From sequence record CP080654.1: a DNA stretch of 64,000 bases. The stretch is one strand, 5' to 3'. The position numbers and the translations under genes are program-made. The notes below the pieces were generated by a model. It was not told the origin of the DNA. It saw nothing but the letters and a program-made list of their open reading frames with translations, and ran no database searches. Origin of the DNA: a plasmid. This document shows positions 55,640 to 64,000 of the stretch, one piece after another (position 1 is the stretch's first letter; every line of letters begins with the position of its first letter).

Positions 55640-56326
55640 TTATAACAATCTGTTAACATGCCGAGTGATAATATCCCTGACATTTTTCATTACCGGTTCC
55701 AACAGCTCACTTAGATGAAGAACGATGAAGGCATCATCACGACTACTAATATTAAGCTTGGTTAGTATTTGACTGCTTTTATTTCTGGAAGATCCGTTTT
55801 CCAGTCCAAGAAACTGCCCCATAATCTTGTGACTTGCACCGCCTGCATAAAACCCAAAAAAATCATACTCACTTTTATCAAGCCTTTTGACAGCCCTCAT
55901 AAAATTAACGACATCCGCATGCAGGGGAAGAGATCTTGTTATTCTTTTAATGGAGTTTGATGCCCTTCCAAACTTCCATAAAAAGTGGACAGCACCATCA
56001 CTGACAAATTCCTCGATCATAAAATCAAATTGCTTTCCATTGATATAAATACATCTTTCAATATGGAAGTTAGATTGTTCAATTTGAATCAGTAGTTCTA
56101 ACTCTCGAAGTCCAAGAAAGGTGTCAGTACCAATCAGTTCCTCCCAACTTCGTTCGGACTGCAAAGCGCCCCCGAACTCATACAAAAATGCTGAATTGAA
56201 TGCCGGAAATTCTCCTGACTGATTATGAATACAAACCGGGAAAGAATAGTGCATGATGAGCGCCTCAAGAGAAGAAGCGAGGGATTGACGGCAGGTGTCT
56301 TTTTCATTACGATCCATCGGATACAT
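55640..56326 (-). CDS. traJ: tra operon activator TraJ (about 228 aa from MYPMDR..)
   Basis: MYPMDR start as in F TraJ; C-terminal LuxR-type HTH; position. Confidence 0.8.
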   Translation of the reverse strand: MYPMDRNEKDTCRQSLASSLEALIMHYSFPVCIHNQSGEFPAFNSAFLYEFGGALQSERSWEELIGTDTFLGLRELELLIQIEQSNFHIERCIYINGKQFDFMIEEFVSDGAVHFLWKFGRASNSIKRITRSLPLHADVVNFMRAVKRLDKSEYDFFGFYAGGASHKIMGQFLGLENGSSRNKSSQILTKLNISSRDDAFIVLHLSELLEPVMKNVRDIITRHVNRLL

Positions 56327-56410
56327 AGAGGCCTCCTTGTTAGGTCTACTATGGGCAGTAGGTATGAGAAGGTGAATGCTTCTCATACCTGCGAAACTCA
56401 AATTTTCACT
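56315..56410 (+). ncRNA. finP: Predicted FinP antisense RNA region opposite the traJ leader (coordinates approximate)
   Basis: Strong hairpin gcag(ta)ggtatgagaag-gtgaatg-cttctcatacctgc at 56355-56392 overlapping the traJ RBS region; architecture inference. Confidence 0.35.
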
Positions 56411-56499
56411 TACTATTTGAAAAAATAATAATGCATTTATAATTACATGTCATCTATAAAAGACCGAGTTTTATTCTTTTTATACCCTGTGCATCAGCA

Positions 56500-56901
56500 T
56501 TAATCATTAGTATTATTTACCTCATCCTCTTCAGGGAAATACATACGCATAACTTCCTGCACGTCTTCCTGAATATTCTGAATGATCCCTTTCCATTGCC
56601 ATCGAGGGTCATCCTTTACATGGGGACTGAGGCATTCAATACCCAAAACTTTATTCATAGAAAACTGTGTTTTAACTACATATTCGAATAAAGCCTTATT
56701 GAATGCCATCTGATTGAAACCAGACTCCTTACGTTCCATTTGAGCTTCATACACACGAAGCCCAAGCTCAATGAGCATCGAACTGATACTTGAAAAATTC
56801 ACATCCTTGTCCTTAGCACCGCCAGCACGACGCTGCTCAATGATTGCATTGATTTTCTCAACAACCTGATCACTTATATAAACCTGCACTCTTGGCATAG
56901 C
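56500..56901 (-). CDS. traM: Relaxosome protein TraM (about 133 aa from MPRVQVYISD..)
   Basis: ..YISDQVVEKINAIIEQRRAGGAKDKDVNFSSISSMLIELGLRVYEAQMERKESGFNQ.. closely matches TraM. Confidence 0.88.
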   Translation of the reverse strand, partial: AMPRVQVYISDQVVEKINAIIEQRRAGGAKDKDVNFSSISSMLIELGLRVYEAQMERKESGFNQMAFNKALFEYVVKTQFSMNKVLGIECLSPHVKDDPRWQWKGIIQNIQEDVQEVMRMYFPEEDEVNNTND

Positions 56902-56969
56902 AAATCCTTTCTTATTAAGAGTGAATACTAACAACACACATATAGAATTTTCGTCCAACAAACTCAAGA

Positions 56970-57300
56970 TTAGAGTCCAGACTACACTCTAGAGTCTAGA
57001 GCATAAAGTATCTCATCAAAAGGGACTACACTCTAGAGTGCAATCCCAATTATCCATCTGATTTTATAGACGATAGTCGTTATCGACTCTAAAAAGACTC
57101 TATCCAGACTCTATTTAGAGTCTGGATAGAGTCTGTTTATACTTTCTAAATGAAAGAAACAGAAAGTTCACTCACATAAGCTCATAATTTAAAGGATAAA
57201 TCTGCAAAATTTTAATTTTGCGTGGGGTGTGGTGATTTTGTGGTGAGGAGTGCATATATGTTGAGTCTCGGTCTTGGATGGGTTAAGGTTATTCCGGGAT
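56970..57300. other. oriT: Origin of transfer (oriT) with F-type nic sequence gtggggtgt^ggtg (nic predicted between 57230 and 57231 on the + strand, so the + strand is transferred 5'->3' toward higher coordinates)
   Basis: ttttgcgtggggtgtggtgattttgtggtgag matches the F nic region; TraM-site palindromes nearby. Confidence 0.75.
57096..57133. repeat. Perfect 38-bp palindrome (gactctatccagactcta-tt-tagagtctggatagagtc); candidate TraM binding site in oriT
   Basis: Read directly; additional related half-sites (actctagagtctagagc, ctacactctagagtg) at 56985-57043. Confidence 0.6.
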
Positions 57301-57319
57301 TTGGCACGGAGGGGAATTC

Positions 57320-57805
57320 ATGAAGGGAGTAGCGTTTGGTATCATCCTGTCTTTAATACCATTGTCATCAATGGCAGCAGACTGCTTTGATATGGCTGGC
57401 AGGGATTACAAAATTGATCCGGATCTCCTGCGTGCTATATCATGGCAAGAATCACGATTTAAAATTGATGCGATTGGGCGTAATCCTGTTACGGGTTATG
57501 GATCAGGCTTGATGCAAATTGACTCGCAGCATTTCAACGAACTGTCGCGATATGGAATAAAACCGGATCATCTTCTTAGCGATGCTTGTCTTAACATCTA
57601 CACCGGAGCCTATTATCTGGCTCAGGCGTTTAAAAAGTGGGGCGTTTCGTGGGATGCAGTCGGGGCATACAATGCAGGCTTCAAAAAGACCCCGCGCCAG
57701 GCAGCAAGACGTTACGAGTATGCGAAGAAGATCCATTACTACTACACGGCTATCAAAGCAAGCAAACGAACTTCTTCTAAAGATCAGAAAATCGCCATGA
57801 ACTAA
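57320..57805 (+). CDS. Lytic transglycosylase (gene X / orf169 / P19 family, 161 aa)
   Basis: ..[55 protein letters not shown].. closely matches F Orf169. Confidence 0.85.
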
Positions 57806-57837
57806 AAAGCCTTCTGATATAAGAAGGCTTGAATTTC

Positions 57838-58170
57838 TTAAAAATCTACGGCATCTATACCTGGATAATAATCGGCATCACTATCAAAATGAAAAAGCAG
57901 ATACCCGCCCTCCCGGTGCATTAGTATGAGATTTTTGCGTAAAAATTTTGACACCCCACCTCTTTTTAGCGCCAGAAGATGGCGTTTGAAATCATACATC
58001 CTTATAACACAACCATAAGGTGTATCATGTATCCACTCTAAGTAACTATCGCAAGTTAGATAATTGGTTGTTGATGAAAGCACCTGAAGAACTCTGATAT
58101 CACCTTCTTCCATATGTGAAATACTGATACAGACAGCTTTAAATTCAAACATAAGTATTCCCACCATCAA
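57838..58170 (-). CDS. Hypothetical 110-aa leading-region protein
   Basis: ORF only. Confidence 0.35.
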   Translation of the reverse strand: MMVGILMFEFKAVCISISHMEEGDIRVLQVLSSTTNYLTCDSYLEWIHDTPYGCVIRMYDFKRHLLALKRGGVSKFLRKNLILMHREGGYLLFHFDSDADYYPGIDAVDF

Positions 58171-58199
58171 AACGCCGGACAGCTGCCCGGCGCTTATAA

Positions 58200-59021
58200 T
58201 TAGCCTTTAAGAGTGCGGAATTTCTCCGCAATTAACCACAATGCCTTATTGAGTTTGACATCACCATCAATTGCTTTTACTGGCCGGGTTGTTGTTCTTT
58301 TCCCTTTTTCAGTTCGGCCAGGCAAACCGCCTTTAATCAGATTTTCCTGGACCCTTTGATATGTAGTCCAGATGTCATATTTTTTATCTTCATAACGGCG
58401 CGGATGAATTATCTGTTCAATACTGACCGGAGATTTATTTTCATCTTCATATCGGTAGGTTAATGCAGCTTGTCCAAACAGACGCTGTTCTTCCTTGGTT
58501 AAGGCAATAGACTTCATGACATCAACGCCTTCAGTTATTTTATCGAAAATTCCCAGAACTTCGTAAGCACCTTCGATAACCCTTCCCACAATATCACCTT
58601 TATGAGGTACACGAATCTCACCAAACGACGTACCGCACACAAGGCCATTTGTGCATACAAAACGGAACATACCCGGGATCATTTGATAACTGGACGATCC
58701 ATCATGCGAGTTAAGAAGAATGATTTCGGGTACTTCTGTTCCTTTATTGGCCCCTTCACGGCGAAGTCTTACCATATGCTTAGTATGCCCCCGTTTATCC
58801 TCATCCCTTACTCGTGACTGACAGGCAAAAAATGGCTGGAAACCTTCTTCACGTAATTTATCCAGCAGTGTAATGGTTGGAATATAGGTATAGCGATCAC
58901 TACGTGAATTATGCTTTTCTTCTGAAAACACAGAAGGTACAACCTTGACTAATTCATCGTTAGTCAGTGGGCGTTCCTGACGAATGGAATGAGTAAGTCC
59001 AAATCGGGATGCTAAACGCAT
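58200..59021 (-). CDS. DUF932-family leading-region protein (273 aa from MRLASRFGL..). The listed 425-aa ORF is an artefactual read-through of the upstream repeat
   Basis: Domain-typical length and composition; start placed at the first Met after the repeat element. Confidence 0.65.
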   Translation of the reverse strand: MRLASRFGLTHSIRQERPLTNDELVKVVPSVFSEEKHNSRSDRYTYIPTITLLDKLREEGFQPFFACQSRVRDEDKRGHTKHMVRLRREGANKGTEVPEIILLNSHDGSSSYQMIPGMFRFVCTNGLVCGTSFGEIRVPHKGDIVGRVIEGAYEVLGIFDKITEGVDVMKSIALTKEEQRLFGQAALTYRYEDENKSPVSIEQIIHPRRYEDKKYDIWTTYQRVQENLIKGGLPGRTEKGKRTTTRPVKAIDGDVKLNKALWLIAEKFRTLKG

Positions 59022-59048
59022 TTTTTTCTCCTTAATTAGATCTGAATT

Positions 59049-59636
59049 TTTTAAACCATCACCCGTTGAGTTGCCGGGGCCGCGGTTTTGACTTTGTGCG
59101 GGGACCTGCTGAACCTGCCCCCTGGATATAACCTTCACCCGTTTGAGAGCCGTTCGCCGCGAGGGCGTAAACGAGCACGGCCCGGTGCAGATGTCCGGGG
59201 GTGAGCGGGAAATTTTTTTCGGTCTAATGAAGCGGCAGCGGAATGGCCGGGAAAAATTTATTGCGAAAGGCTCTGCCGTCCCCTGGACAGCAAGACGGGT
59301 TGTGCTTGTCTCAGCCCCGGCGAATGGACTCAAACGGGTGATACGGCGCCAGGGGAAAGGAGCAGGCACCCGCCGCAACGACGAAGAGCGCGGGCGCGAA
59401 ACGGCGTTGCCCTGCAGAGTGCCGGCAGCTTTATCGCCGGCACGGTGAAAGCGGCGCGACCGGAACGGTCGCAGCAAGCGCTGCTGTTGACCCTGACCTC
59501 AGACATCAGACACTAGCCGTCAGGCCCGAAACCGCGTAGCGGGTTCGGCGGAGCTTACCGCGTCTTTTCGCGGTTAGCGGAGTGTGGCTCGACGACCGGA
59601 CAGCGCAGCTGGCCGGGAGCCGAAGGTGTCCAGTAT
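59049..59636. repeat. Copy 1 of a 586-588-bp direct repeat (Frpo/ssi-like single-strand promoter candidate) immediately upstream of the DUF932 gene
   Basis: Near-identical to 61755-62340; GC-rich with extensive secondary-structure potential. Confidence 0.7.
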
Positions 59637-59841
59637 GGGTGTGCTTTTAAAGCCTTTAAGGGTTAAAAAGAGACATCACAGCAGAAAGAAGAAGAGAAAG
59701 CAGGAAGACAGGGGGCAGCAAACAGGGAAAACGCGGAAAGGAAATACGGGCGGCGCGTGAGCGCGGCCCGGTTTTCCCGGCGACGCAGGCGCGCGGCCTT
59801 TTAGCGCAGTCGGGCAGGTGATCCCCTGCCCTTTCGGTTAT

Positions 59842-60675
59842 TTACGCGGCCTCCTGTATTCCGCGCAAAAAGTCCCGCATGGCCCTGAACCGGCGAAGAT
59901 CTGCCAGTCGCTTTTCAAAGGCATTCAGGTAGTAAACCGGGGTATACCTCACCCGCCGGTACTGCATCGTGAGCGTGTTACCCGTCACCACTTCCGCCGC
60001 TATCCCCAGCAGTGACAGCTGGATGAAGGCCATATCTGCCGCTACCGGATCGATGTCAATGCAGCTGCCGAACATGTGCATTGAGGGGTTGATATCGGCT
60101 TCAAGCAGGCACTCTGCATAGGCGATCAGCATCCCGGCAGCCCCACACGCCGGATCGCTGACTGTGGCAATCCCTTCCCGGCGGATAGTGTCTCTGACAC
60201 CTGGCATTAGCATCCGCGCCATCAGACACTGCACTGAATACGGGGTAAAATACTGCCCGCGAAAATTATCGCCCAGCTCCAGCTCCATAAAAATAGCGCC
60301 GAGGAAATCATGAAATTTCGCCTCCAGCGCACACACCATCAGGCAGAACATTTCCTGCATGTTCGCGATGTCGGTGGCCCCGTACCGGGCGCAGATTTTC
60401 CGGCAGTTCTCCATGCTCTCCGGCGTTCGTATCCGGGCCATATCCAGCTCGCTGGCGGCAAGCGACAGAAAATCACTGAACACTTCCCAGCGCCCCAGAT
60501 GGCGGCCCGTATCCTTAAATACGCGGATAAAACGGCTCCGGCTGTACTGCTCGCTCATCATACGCTGAACCGTGGGCACCATTTCCGCGATCTGCTGCCC
60601 TGCCTGAATGACAGGGCTGTTATCAGCGGCTTCTCTGGCCATATTGAACACATCGGCAAAACTCAGTTGTGACAT
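59842..60675 (-). CDS. HsdM/N6-adenine DNA methyltransferase-like protein (277 aa) lacking catalytic motif IV
   Basis: Motif X (GQYFTPYSV) and motif I (DPACGAAGML) present; no NPPF/DPPY follows before the stop. Confidence 0.7.
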   Translation of the reverse strand: MSQLSFADVFNMAREAADNSPVIQAGQQIAEMVPTVQRMMSEQYSRSRFIRVFKDTGRHLGRWEVFSDFLSLAASELDMARIRTPESMENCRKICARYGATDIANMQEMFCLMVCALEAKFHDFLGAIFMELELGDNFRGQYFTPYSVQCLMARMLMPGVRDTIRREGIATVSDPACGAAGMLIAYAECLLEADINPSMHMFGSCIDIDPVAADMAFIQLSLLGIAAEVVTGNTLTMQYRRVRYTPVYYLNAFEKRLADLRRFRAMRDFLRGIQEAA

Positions 60676-60966
60676 GAAACATTCTCCGGTAATGCCGCCC
60701 CCTTCAGGGGGCGGCGTTTTTCACATCACGCGAGGCCGAGGCCAGCGTAAACCGCGGTCATGAACTGCTGCCAGTACTCCAGCTTTAAAGCGGGAACGCG
60801 GGCTCGCTGACCACTGCGAAGGGCATTTACAAACGCGTTCGCCTGTGCGACGATTTGCGGGTCGAAATTCATGGTTTAATCTCCATGTTTATTTTGTGTA
60901 TGCCGGATGCAAACTTTTGCGGGTGTCACATCCGGCGTGGAATGAGCAGGCGAAAGCCTGCTTTTT

Positions 60967-61314
60967 TCATTTTTCGGTCAGGTTAAATCCCTCCTTAATG
61001 CGCGTTGTGATCTGCGCATGGCTCAGGTTACACACATCCCGCAGCCGGAAATATCTGGCTCCGTAGCGGGCATAGATCTCTGTCACGTCACCGCAAACCA
61101 TCTCCTGCAGCATGAACGTTTCCCACTCGCCGTTCTCACTCGTTGACCAGTTGAGCGGATACATCAGGCCCAGCGCGTCATGGAATGTGTGAACGTCGAT
61201 TTCTGAGGGGGCTTTTACCGCTGCTTTCTGCAGGCTCAACCAGTATTCGCGCTCTGCTTCTGCTGTAGCCAGCATTCCCGGATGGGCTGAGGATTCGGTG
61301 AGGAGTAAGTGCAT
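60967..61314 (-). CDS. Hypothetical leading-region protein (about 115 aa from MHLLLTESS..)
   Basis: ORF only. Confidence 0.4.
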   Translation of the reverse strand: MHLLLTESSAHPGMLATAEAEREYWLSLQKAAVKAPSEIDVHTFHDALGLMYPLNWSTSENGEWETFMLQEMVCGDVTEIYARYGARYFRLRDVCNLSHAQITTRIKEGFNLTEK

Positions 61315-61370
61315 GGGGTTCTCCTTCAGGTTAAGGGTTGGCAGTACCAAACCGCCACCCGATTAGGTCA

Positions 61371-61724
61371 TCAGTAATCAGCTGCCAGCTCGCTCATAAG
61401 GTCGGCACATTCATCATGAGCACGTTCTTCTTCCGCCAGCGTCAGCATGTAACCCCGTTGAGCCGCCGCGCCAATGAATACCGGACGATCTTTCAGCGGC
61501 AGCTTTTCCAGGTAAATCATAGCCATACTCAACAGACGGGACGCATAAATCTCGTAGTACAAACCACACCCACGACTTGCCTGTTTTTCCATACGAGCCA
61601 GCACCACATCAGCGCGGATCACATCGAAAGGGTTACGGGAATGAATGTTGCGCACAAAACAGTCAGTCCGGAGGGTTGTGCTTTCTTTGGTGGAGGGTTT
61701 TACGTTGACGTTTTGTATGCTCAT
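61371..61724 (-). CDS. Hypothetical leading-region protein (about 117 aa from MSIQNVNVKP..), directly downstream of repeat copy 2
   Basis: ORF only. Confidence 0.4.
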   Translation of the reverse strand: MSIQNVNVKPSTKESTTLRTDCFVRNIHSRNPFDVIRADVVLARMEKQASRGCGLYYEIYASRLLSMAMIYLEKLPLKDRPVFIGAAAQRGYMLTLAEEERAHDECADLMSELAADY

Positions 61725-61754
61725 CCTACTTTCTCCTCTGTCTGTTTTTCTGTC

Positions 61755-62340
61755 TTTTAAAACCATCACCCGTTGAGTTGCCGGGGCCGCGGTTTTGACT
61801 TTGTGCGGGGACCTGCTGAACCTGCCCCCTGGATATAACCTTCACCCGTTTGAGAGCCGTTCGCCGCAAGGGCGTAAACGAGCACGGCCCGGTGCAGATG
61901 TCCGGGGGTGAGCGGGAAATTTTTTTCGGCCTAATGAAGCGGCAGCGGAATGGCCGGGGAAAATTTATTGCGAAAGGCCCTGCCGTCCCCTGGACAGCAA
62001 GACGGGTTGTGCTTGTCTCAGCCCCGGCGAATGGACTCAAACGGGTGATACGGGTACCAGGGGAAAGGAGCAGGCACCCGCCGCAACGACGGAACGCGCG
62101 GGCGCGAAACGGCGTTGCCCCGCAGAGTGCCGGCAGCTTTATCGCCGGCACGGTGAAAGCGGCGCGACCGGGACGGTCGCAGCAAGCGCTGCCGTTGACC
62201 TTTCAGACATCAGACACTAGCCGTCAGGCCCGAAACCGCTTTGCGGGTTCGGCGGAGCTTACCGCGTCTTTTCGCGGTTAGCGGAGTGTGGCTCGACGAC
62301 TGGCCAGCTTTGCTGGTCAGGAGCCGAAGGGGTCCAGTGT
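61755..62340. repeat. Copy 2 of the 586-bp Frpo/ssi-like direct repeat
   Basis: Near-identical to 59049-59636 with a few substitutions/indels. Confidence 0.7.
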
Positions 62341-62353
62341 TGTTATGCCTTTC

Positions 62354-62704
62354 TTAACGTTCCAGGCGTTCGACGGTGGCCAGCAATTGCGGATAGGTCG
62401 CTGAGTAACACTTTTCGTACAGTGATTTAGCTGCGGGTATCCCTTCCAGATAATCATCCGAGTCCCGAATTTCCTGAGCCAGATATTCAATAAAGGCGGG
62501 TTCCACAACGGAGCCACTCAGCACATTAAGCAGAACCTGTGTTTCGTCGTCATCGAGAGGAAGGGCACAGGCCCGAACCAGATGCGCATAGCGATCAAAG
62601 ATATTATTCAGCCTTTCAGTCACCCCTTCCCTGTGGGAGTTCAGATGTGCTCGCAGCTTAGGCGAAGGCGTGAAAGAGGGGTTGCGGGAGATCTCTTTTT
62701 TCAC
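62354..62704 (-). CDS. Hypothetical 116-aa leading-region protein
   Basis: ORF, 4-bp overlap with the next gene. Confidence 0.4.
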   Translation of the reverse strand: MKKEISRNPSFTPSPKLRAHLNSHREGVTERLNNIFDRYAHLVRACALPLDDDETQVLLNVLSGSVVEPAFIEYLAQEIRDSDDYLEGIPAAKSLYEKCYSATYPQLLATVERLER

Positions 62705-62994
62705 TGGTTATCCTCAGAATACTGGCCCGACATCATTAAGAATTTGCGCCGCTCCCTCACGAACTGTCGATACCATTTACGGGCAACACTGGCCAGATCG
62801 TCCTCAGAAGCGTCACAGTACAGCGTACTGCCCATAAACCCTCCCCCACGGCAAATCTGAGCACCTGTGTTACCAGAGTGTCCCGGGGACTCCAGGTGGA
62901 CATAACCGCCACTCTCGGGTGCGTAAAAACTGAAAATTTCGCCGGTTTTACGGGATTTTATCGTGAAGTTCATGCTGGCTCTCCTTTGGCTCAC
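62701..62994 (-). CDS. Hypothetical 97-aa leading-region protein
   Basis: ORF only. Confidence 0.35.
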   Translation of the reverse strand: MSQRRASMNFTIKSRKTGEIFSFYAPESGGYVHLESPGHSGNTGAQICRGGGFMGSTLYCDASEDDLASVARKWYRQFVRERRKFLMMSGQYSEDNQ

Positions 62995-63020
62995 CCGCGA
63001 CTGCGCTTCGCCTCACTGAG

Positions 63021-63380
63021 TTAAGTGGAAAAATTGCTGTTCATTACACAATCAACTGTATGACAGATGTCATACATAATCAACAAAAAAAAGCCGGCTA
63101 ACAATTGCGTTGATTCAGTCACTCCGGCAACATCAATAATTAACATCCACATAGCTATGGCAAATAACTGGCATGCAATTATCCTTGCGTTCATCATAGA
63201 ACCACCTAATAAAGACACTGTTGCGGCCATAGTTATAATCCACATTCCAGCAAAAGCAGCAAAAATAGCTGAAATGCTGAACCCCAAAAATGTAAACACT
63301 ATCGATTCACGCACGGTAAGCCCGTAAAATCCATAAAGCACTAAAATCACACAAATAAATACCACCATAAACTTCATCAT
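63021..63380 (-). CDS. Hypothetical polytopic membrane protein (119 aa)
   Basis: ORF, 4 TM helices. Confidence 0.35.
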   Translation of the reverse strand: MMKFMVVFICVILVLYGFYGLTVRESIVFTFLGFSISAIFAAFAGMWIITMAATVSLLGGSMMNARIIACQLFAIAMWMLIIDVAGVTESTQLLAGFFLLIMYDICHTVDCVMNSNFST

Positions 63381-63490
63381 AATCCCTCGCTTTCCTTTAA
63401 AATCTGCACACCCAACTTATTTCAATCTAAATTCATTAATCCATTGCCGTTTGATACATAACCCTTAAATCTCGCTGAGTTTAATATCAT

Positions 63491-63817
63491 TTAACGGACT
63501 GTTTTACCGCTAAAATAATCAGGCCGAGCCTCCAGTTCTCTTTCGATGAGTTCATCAGCAAACAGTGGGGCGGTACGATATACTCTTTTCGCCAGATTGC
63601 GTCGGCGAGCTGCAGCTTTTTGTTCTTCACTCCAGCGACGGATCGGCTTGTCCCCACAAAAATCCAGGCACACAGCATACCCTGCCCCTGCCACCCACAA
63701 ATCCATAACTGATGCTGGCGCTGGTTGTCCTTCCTCAACTTGTTCCGAAGCGAGCACCTCCACTCCTGGACACGGAGAAGGTAACTTCCAGCGCAGCGAA
63801 TAGCGCCATGTCATCAA
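63491..63817 (-). CDS. Hypothetical 108-aa protein
   Basis: ORF only. Confidence 0.3.
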   Translation of the reverse strand: MMTWRYSLRWKLPSPCPGVEVLASEQVEEGQPAPASVMDLWVAGAGYAVCLDFCGDKPIRRWSEEQKAAARRRNLAKRVYRTAPLFADELIERELEARPDYFSGKTVR

Positions 63818-64000
63818 TTATCCTCTGCAGATAAGTTTGTTTGGTACCAGCCAGCGCTCCCTCTCAAGGATGGCCTCTTCCGATTCCTGAACGATGAAAC
63901 GGATTTCATGCATAACCTCATACAAGGGGGCATGAGCACAAAGGAGCCAGCGAAGATCCCTGAGAGATGTAAATCGCGTCTGCCAACGCCAGAAGGCCGG

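Follow-up and report, generated by a model that had tools for sequence, protein, structure and literature searches.

Two leading-region repeats of a Klebsiella IncFII(K) plasmid as probable single-stranded promoters joined to a conserved structured module

We analysed a window of 64,000 nucleotides (nt) from plasmid record CP080654.1, which is part of an F-like Klebsiella IncFII(K) plasmid of the pKPN4 type, and focused on two near-identical direct repeats in its leading region, referred to here as copy A and copy B (Table 1). The transfer genes traM, traJ, traY and traA run leftward on the minus strand to the left of the nick region of the origin of transfer (oriT), while an SLT transglycosylase gene followed by the DUF5983 and DUF932 genes lies to the right. 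The nick region, which we take to be the F nic motif GTGGGGTGT/GG, is found on the plus strand. The plus strand is therefore the transferred (T) strand, with its 5' end leading toward higher coordinates, and the minus-strand genes of the leading region are templated by it. This strand call fits the direction of the tra genes, and the leading-region genes of the window, of pKF3-94 and of pKPN4 all lie on the minus strand. From the nick motif it is 1.8 kb to copy A and 4.5 kb to copy B.

The repeat search returned three collinear blocks (59048-59346/61755-62053, 98% identity; 59349-59492/62057-62200, 96%; 59499-59648/62203-62352, 90%). Pairwise alignment showed that they form a single unit of about 600 bp, the breaks being one 1-nt and one 4-nt indel, and a BLAST search of copy A against the whole window matched only the two copies, at 94.4% identity over 602 columns. 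A preliminary description, made from the letters of this DNA, had listed two near-identical GC-rich repeats of 586 bp at 59049-59636 and 61755-62340 that end 20-30 bp before the starts of the DUF932 gene and of a gene of 117 amino acids (aa). Repetition, base composition (GC 0.60-0.67 compared to 0.38-0.45 in the adjoining DUF932 region) and spacing were confirmed, whereas the limits were essentially right but slightly short. Between copy A and the ATG of DUF932 (minus strand, 59021-59019) there are 26 nt, and between copy B and the ATG of the 117-aa open reading frame (ORF) at 61724 there are 30 nt. Both copies are in direct orientation, and each stops just short of a minus-strand start codon with a good Shine-Dalgarno (SD) sequence.

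The repeat unit is present in at least 3930 PLSDB plasmids. Most of these are conjugative Klebsiella IncFII(K) replicons, and a single plasmid can hold four copies or more. At a coverage of at least 80%, the unit is complete in 3178 plasmid records. A chance origin of the repeats is excluded. Among complete relatives, the closest are pKPN4 (NC_009650) and pKF3-94 (NC_013950). Each has four copies, located upstream of a DUF932 gene, a small hypothetical gene, ssb and another small gene; the third and fourth copies lie beyond the end of the window. All copies that were examined precede a gene templated by the T strand (ssb, DUF905, DUF932 or hypothetical) by about 25-35 nt.

Table 1 Features of the two repeats and of the surrounding leading region (window coordinates)
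Feature	Position	Strand	Basis
oriT nick region, GCGTGGGGTGT/GGTG	57221-57235	+	read in sequence
DUF5983 gene, second in the copy A unit	57838-58170	-	PF19419, E 8.7e-13
DUF932 gene, 273 aa, counterpart of F ygeB/ORF273, first gene of copy A; SD AAGGAG 59028-59033	58200-59021	-	PF06067, E 8.8e-51
Repeat copy A: class-1 hairpin promoter, small hairpins and distal module	59048-59648	+	repeat search, alignment, BLAST
Copy A Frpo-homologous part: long imperfect T-strand hairpin with local flanking hairpins H0 and H4	59057-59410	+	fold, homology, covariation
TTGAC in the basal 5' arm, in the 5' untranslated region (UTR) of the predicted transcript	59088-59092 (copy B 61795-61799)	+	A3 columns 73-77
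Copy A candidate core, 3' arm: A/T-rich UP-like tract, -35-like TTGCGA 59261-59266, 17-nt spacer, -10-position TGGACA 59284-59289	59250-59296	+	comparison
Small GC-rich hairpins H5 (59421-59441) and Hp6 (GCGACCG-GAA-CGGTCGC, coordinates approximate), between promoter hairpin and distal module	59421-59475	+	covariation
Copy A module: P1 (59508-13 with 59584-89) enclosing Hp8 (59526-48) and Hp9 (59554-77), then Hp10 (59597-615) and conserved tail GGAGCCGAAGG	59479-59632	+	covariance model, covariation
277-aa protein with partial N6_Mtase domain, copy B cargo	59842-60675	-	PF02384 positions 25-118 of 311, E 5.5e-10
48-aa ORF, copy B cargo	60726-60872	-	ORF list
115/127-aa ORF, copy B cargo	60967-61314	-	ORF list
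117-aa ORF, copy B cargo	61371-61724	-	ORF list
Repeat copy B	61755-62352	+	repeat search, alignment, BLAST
Copy B Frpo-homologous hairpin	61764-62118	+	fold
Copy B candidate -35 TTGCGA and -10-position TGGACA	61968-61973, 61991-61996	+	comparison
Copy B module	62181-62336	+	covariance model R1

In each copy, the ~370 nt nearest the gene align with the F elements Frpo1 (upstream of ygeA/ygeB) and Frpo2 (upstream of ssb). BLAST with F ssiD matched both copies on the same strand (68% identity, 344/351 nt, E 2e-20), which bears out the Frpo/ssi likeness proposed in the preliminary description. The Frpo hairpin offers -35 and -10 boxes to RNA polymerase solely as a single strand, and Frpo homologues are abundant in leading regions. 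Deletion of Frpo1/2 in F abolishes early expression in transconjugants, and the genetics of the F homologues show single-strand dependence (PMC9849209). Additionally, start sites of class-1 promoters have been mapped in pESBL, in the IncI1 equivalents, and the promoters have been sorted into classes 1-3 (PMC12672017). The closest published sequences are the "Frpo' 1-3" candidates from the Serratia marcescens plasmid CP047692.1 in Supplementary Table 2 of Samuel et al., Nature 2024 (PMC11541004), of which Frpo' 1 and Frpo' 2 are 98% identical to both window copies over ~375 nt. These entries are 400-nt upstream windows that end before the distal part of the repeat, and they list the subtype without experiment. 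Judged by its sequence, the proximal element is thus already known, this subtype having been published as an Frpo-like candidate.

Frpo1 (ssiD) and Frpo2 of F, which belong to class 1 (Masai & Arai 1997; Couturier et al. 2023), likewise form long imperfect hairpins on the same T strand, occur in several copies per plasmid and lie directly upstream of leading-region operons, including those of ssb and the DUF932 gene (ygeB). The window copies differ from them in a ~20-nt larger apical insertion, in the direct contact of copy A with DUF932 without ygeA in between, and in a distal region of ~230 nt that F lacks. The extra length of the repeat relative to Frpo reflects the fusion of two elements. 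The IncI1 class-1 elements ssi1-3 of ColIb-P9/pESBL (Bates 1999; Nasim 2004; Wen 2025) have an apical core in common with the window (GTCCGGGGG, A/T stem, TTG(T/C)GG, 16-17 nt, TGGAC), and two of the IncI1 copies bear the same distal module, whereas the basal half of their hairpin is unrelated in sequence. The ColIb-P9 elements gave no BLAST match to the window at E<0.01, and neither repeat matched an Rfam 15 family on either strand at E<=1.

On the plus strand, the proximal part folds into an imperfect hairpin of ~330 nt. The fold energy is -162.6 kcal/mol for copy A (z -6.66 compared to shuffles) and -166.4 kcal/mol for copy B (z -8.63). The minus strand of copy A reaches -139.8 kcal/mol (z -4.7), so that the plus strand is 23 kcal/mol more stable. 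We then used an alignment (A3) of 13 diverse class-1 homologues from Klebsiella, Edwardsiella, Pantoea, Salmonella, Enterobacter, Escherichia coli and F, including two insect-metagenome copies. Its consensus is a long hairpin with local side hairpins, in which 97.5% of the cells are paired and 15 pairs are compensatory; none of 500 shuffles reached the real values, and slid controls were 38-45% paired. In all 13 sequences, the plus strand has G.T at the column pairs 52-67, 56-64 and 164-293. A conserved G.T of the plus strand would turn into A.C on the opposite strand, so that selection for folding acts on the transferred strand. Homology, strand, hairpin, covariation and position relative to the genes are thus established by the present analysis. 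The two small hairpins that follow are also maintained: H5 has compensatory pairs in A3 columns 419-444, and compensatory variants of Hp6, the only distal small hairpin common to F, were read from the homologue sequences.

The apical insertion of ~20 nt of the window type, absent from F-type copies, contains GAAGCGG (59229-59235, 61936-61942). AAGCGG, a motif noted in primosome assembly sites of the PriA type, recurs at 59449 and 62157; in DNA this rich in GC, such matches may arise by chance. A literature search for such a site with AAGCGG returned nothing. In public records, short coding sequences named 'single-stranded DNA-binding protein' or 'hypothetical protein' are annotated within the hairpin promoter or the module (L004 497-658, L009 494-700, L013 10005-10268, L134 1837-1992). 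In view of the indels and the compensatory pattern, these calls are probably spurious.

The upper third of the hairpin, in its 3' arm, is the sole part common to the F and ColIb-P9 elements. It consists of an A/T-rich stem, TTG(C/T)G(G/A), a spacer of 16-17 nt, an invariant TGGAC box and a conserved internal loop, and we read the same layout and spacing in the window, F and ColIb-P9 sequences. In copy A, the box is followed by a conserved mismatch bubble (59290-59296 opposite 59184-59191). Transcription is predicted to start near T-strand positions 59185 (copy A) and 61892 (copy B) and to proceed toward lower coordinates, giving leaders of ~165 nt. The working Frpo2-acrIIA4 construct of Samuel et al. 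begins, in gene sense, at GTCCCTGTCGCCGGGG and so does without the basal 3' arm; this locates the promoter in the apical part. A canonical linear sigma-70 promoter was not found in the repeats, as would fit a promoter that is active only when folded. For promoter activity, its restriction to the single strand and the exact start site, we rely on the published work on F and ColIb-P9/pESBL.

The basal 5' arm carries a TTGAC that is invariant in 13/13 class-1 homologues and has no convincing -10 partner. A 5'-arm promoter combining this TTGAC at 59088 with either TATAAC 33 nt off or GAACCT 17 nt off was considered and rejected as the main promoter: the ColIb-P9 elements lack TTGAC, the putative -10 box is not conserved, and the opposite arm is missing from the construct that worked in Samuel et al.

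The distal part of the repeat contains a second structured unit. In an alignment (A5) of 30 module copies with less than 95% identity, covariation supports four helices: Hp8, Hp9 and the closing helix P1 (columns 33-38 with 119-124) make up a three-way junction, and Hp10 follows. We found 92.2% of the cells paired and 19/28 pairs compensatory; this was matched by 0/500 shuffles, and slid controls were 31-55% paired. The helices vary freely in sequence yet remain complementary, and between them lie invariant unpaired blocks (CCATCAGAC, TAGC, GCCCGAAAC, GGTTCGGCGGAG, GACGAC and GGAGCCGAAGG). The two window copies themselves show compensatory changes in Hp10 (CGGACAGCG..GCTGGCCG in copy B vs TGGCCAGC..GCTGGTCA in copy A). 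A conserved A.G mismatch in three helices and a T.T in one were read from the alignment. These mismatches, the wobble pairs (G.T 10 vs A.C 2) and the fold z scores (plus strand -3.1 vs minus strand -1.8) point to the transferred strand as the folding strand of the module. The minimum free energy fold of the plus strand recovers Hp8, Hp9 and Hp10 but closes the junction otherwise than P1. Its junction (ACACT/AGTGT and GGCTC/GAGCC) was rejected, since covariation favours AGACAC/GTGGCT (columns 37-120, A-T in 14 and C-G in 14; columns 33-124).

A covariance model of the module (R1) scored 160.5 bits for copy A and 153.7 bits for copy B. It detected only these two repeat-borne copies in the window, two copies in an IncI1 plasmid, and none in F or in four other loci bearing class-1 promoters. 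Plasmids of the IncI1 and IncI-gamma groups carry the module at ~72% identity, placed between ardA and the class-1 promoter that follows, and it is also present in contigs of Klebsiella, Enterobacter, Pantoea, Kluyvera, Atlantibacter, Cedecea, Dryocola and Entomohabitans. Among complete E. coli genomes, 2968/5426 (about 55%) carry it, with 7890/7971 places on plasmids. It is found in at least 5000 PLSDB records and in none of the phage records. On its 5' side, the module is in nearly all cases flanked by a stable hairpin, which belongs to one of five types (window, F, ColIb, Salmonella 'Frpo*5' and insect 'Frpo*4'). The module always separates the end of the early operon upstream from the hairpin promoter that comes next, and every early-operon boundary in Klebsiella IncFII(K) plasmids bears one; in copy B, 18 nt lie between its edge and the stop codon of the 116-aa ORF upstream. 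Since the adjoining promoter fires away from the module, the module is not transcribed from it. A literature search on the module motifs returned nothing relevant, and the papers searched contain no description of the module, which was probably overlooked because F lacks it.

Several further observations concern the module. A (T/C)TGAC(C/G) motif (59487-59492, 62195-62200) precedes the TAGC junction by 15-21 nt in most of the 30 copies and has no convincing -10 partner. A small RNA of the plus strand starting from TTGACC...TAGCCG is unlikely given this 15-21 nt spacing, the poor -10 and an inconsistent terminator. A hammerhead-like reading of CTGATGG and CGAAAC was dropped because the motifs are on opposite strands. 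The motif pattern TTCGGCGGAG-N50-80-GAGCCGAAGG proved too loose in genome contigs, most of its 120 matches in other phyla being chance; scoring the matches with a covariance model kept solely Enterobacterales contigs and one suspect contig from a metagenome-assembled genome. The latter, a 4.1-kb contig assigned to Ferruginibacter (Bacteroidota; JAYRPG010000147.1, L016), carries an IncI1-like copy at 743-900 (123.5 bits) and is most likely a mis-binned fragment of an enterobacterial plasmid.

Overall, each repeat is very probably a class-1 (Frpo/ssi-type) single-stranded DNA promoter of an F-like Klebsiella plasmid that is fused to a separate structured module. During conjugation, the plus strand would enter the recipient 5' end first from the nick at 57231/57232, so that copy A would arrive after ~1.8 kb and copy B after ~4.5 kb. 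Ahead of complementary-strand synthesis, the proximal ~350 nt would fold back into the long imperfect hairpin, the top of which would mimic a double-stranded promoter with the A/T-rich tract, TTGCGA, the 17-nt spacer, the TGGAC box and an unpaired bubble at the start. The sigma-70 RNA polymerase of the host may then initiate there and copy the T strand toward its 5' end. The product would be a DUF932-DUF5983 mRNA from copy A and an mRNA for the 117-aa, 115-aa and 48-aa ORFs and the methylase-like protein from copy B. Complementary-strand synthesis would remove the hairpin and thereby switch the promoter off, and by analogy with F the transcript may also prime this synthesis.

That the distal ~155 nt represent a distinct, previously undescribed structured T-strand element, a portable companion of several unrelated types of hairpin promoter, is a reading that we put forward tentatively. 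Possible roles are that of an insulator or roadblock, of a dedicated priming site or of a protein-recognition site. Our best guess is an insulator or roadblock on single-stranded DNA. This role is favoured because the module lies between the end of one operon and the next promoter and polymerases come from that side: both the RNA polymerase from an upstream promoter and the DNA polymerase of complementary-strand synthesis would reach the next hairpin from the module side. By stopping them, the module might shield the hairpin or lengthen its single-stranded life. The class-2 element ssp2/Frpo3 of F (Fraikin et al., bioRxiv 2026), which is also a replication roadblock, provides a precedent for a stable T-strand fold in the leading region that delays complementary-strand synthesis and prolongs early expression, the role proposed here for the module. 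In ssp2, however, the roadblock is the promoter hairpin itself, whereas the window would use a separate module. The flanks of related modules matched reference types other than ssp2 better.

Several observations weigh against parts of this interpretation. The preliminary description had suggested folding the plus strand in search of a hairpin with -35 and -10 boxes; the hairpin is evident, but the hexamers are poor, TTGCGA matching the consensus in 4/6 and TGGACA in 2/6 positions, with boxes and spacing deduced by comparison. Moreover, the apical A/T stem is wholly missing in some homologues (Enterobacter L010 and the insect-metagenome copies). Owing to the weak hexamers and these homologues, we infer the promoter core rather than assign it. 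The invariant basal TTGAC, which is the best match to the position weight matrix, is left unexplained by the model. The strand preference of the module rests on few wobble pairs, and F works without a distal module. The minus strand, as an RNA leader or 3' UTR, also beats shuffles, and an added role at the RNA level is possible.

The main alternative for the role of the module is that of a priming signal. The repeats might primarily be ssi signals that prime complementary-strand synthesis, expression being secondary, with the module as a dedicated priming site for primosome assembly or for entry of RNA polymerase or primase. We consider this unlikely, although several features speak for it. 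The Frpo element of F was originally isolated under the name ssiD; priming of DNA synthesis by its transcripts occurs in vitro and, apparently, also in vivo. A multi-hairpin T-strand fold with invariant unpaired motifs has the general anatomy of priming signals on single-stranded DNA, as in the minus-strand origin of filamentous phages, the complementary-strand origin of phage G4 and ssoA of rolling-circle plasmids, which are read by a host polymerase or primase. The module junction contains an invariant TAGC(C)G, and many copies read TAGCGT or TAGCGA, a TAGCG(T/A) that may resemble CS-6 of ssoA; the AAGCGG at 59449 and the GAAGCGG at 59229 may invite a similar comparison. However, priming could go along with promoter function and need not replace it, and a primer placed at the module would at once make the adjacent promoter double-stranded. 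CTG is the start triplet of DnaG, and an invariant CTG is absent from the unpaired positions of A5. A similarity to F ssiE was not evident in a comparison by eye, and F converts normally without the module.

The single-stranded promoter reading also has to be weighed against two explanations that need no folded DNA strand. Selection might act on RNA of the gene-sense (minus) strand, with the proximal part serving as a 5' leader and the distal part as a 3'-UTR terminator or stabiliser of the upstream operon, both expressed from ordinary double-stranded promoters. The minus strand does beat shuffles (z -4.7; module z -1.8), the copy B module starts 18 nt past a stop codon, and the 5' arm of the hairpin necessarily lies in the predicted 5' UTR. 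We nevertheless regard this as very unlikely: the conserved G.T pairs and A.G mismatches of the plus strand become A.C and C.T on the minus strand, the plus-strand fold is the more stable by 23 kcal/mol, no sigma-70 consensus promoter was found in the repeats, no U-tract was seen on reading after the minus-strand hairpins, and the genetics of the F homologue show single-strand dependence. Finally, the repeats could be remnants of insertion sequences or miniature inverted-repeat transposable elements, or non-functional duplicated intergenic DNA kept alike by gene conversion. Copies within a plasmid are 94-98% alike compared to 68-85% for homologues in other plasmid families, which indicates concerted evolution or recent duplication. 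An origin of this kind is highly improbable, however, because compensatory substitutions keep the helices, and all plasmids examined have the repeat in a fixed orientation and at a fixed distance from the downstream start codon. Terminal inverted repeats are lacking, with no inverted repeat of at least 30 nt found in 56000-64000; no transposase appears among the Pfam matches (nearby only DUF932, DUF5983 and N6_Mtase) or in the annotated relatives. The ORFs within the repeats differ (101 aa in A, 143 aa in B) as a result of indels that break the frames, so that no conserved ORF remains.

Whereas the repeat is complete in 3178 plasmid records, only 204 contain the whole 2.1-kb cargo that lies between copies A and B, and pKF3-94 has a toxin-antitoxin pair and helix-turn-helix genes between the same repeats instead. 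Leading-region blocks are known to be lost and gained via recombination between Frpo repeats (PMC3817090). These data support the modular 'promoter plus early gene' cassettes of the preliminary description. Its claim that the cargo differs from that of F does not hold for DUF932, the usual Frpo1 cargo: in F, Frpo1 drives ygeA and the DUF932 gene ygeB. The same four copy B cargo genes are annotated in pKPN4, and the 117-aa, 115-aa and 48-aa ORFs have no Pfam family. The 277-aa protein, named N-6 DNA methylase in RefSeq, covers only part of the N6_Mtase profile and looks like a truncated or degenerate methylase, in line with what had been noted before.

For the specialist, the proximal finding is published knowledge and holds nothing new; the bipartite repeat and the companion module supported by covariation are the only potentially new points. 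In F-like resistance plasmids, the arrangement of leading-region genes as cassettes behind repeated single-strand promoters explains both the burst of expression on entry and the recombinational shuffling. The module is among the most widespread conserved non-coding folds on enterobacterial conjugative plasmids, and Klebsiella IncFII(K) plasmids carry much clinical resistance. Should the module indeed set the single-stranded lifetime or serve to insulate early operons, it would add a new control point to plasmid establishment, one that might be targeted to block plasmid spread.

A few additional features were noted in the surrounding DNA. Between the copy A module and the end of the methylase-like gene lies a purine-rich tract of the plus strand (59650-59740, AT skew up to 0.42), followed by a terminator-like hairpin on the same strand (59812-59831). 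In oriT, a perfect-looking inverted repeat (ctctatccagactctatttagagtctggatagag, 57090-57140) gave several spurious Rfam matches to microRNAs and to NrrF and is probably a binding site for a relaxosome protein. Within the copy B cassette, 60867-60966 of the plus strand weakly matches the Rfam family AS-pc01, an antisense RNA of the IncFII plasmid pHK01 (39.6 bits compared to a gathering score of 79, E 2.7e-4). This match overlaps a terminator-like hairpin with a T-run on the plus strand (60944-60963) between the 48-aa and 115-aa ORFs, and the segment could be an antisense small RNA.

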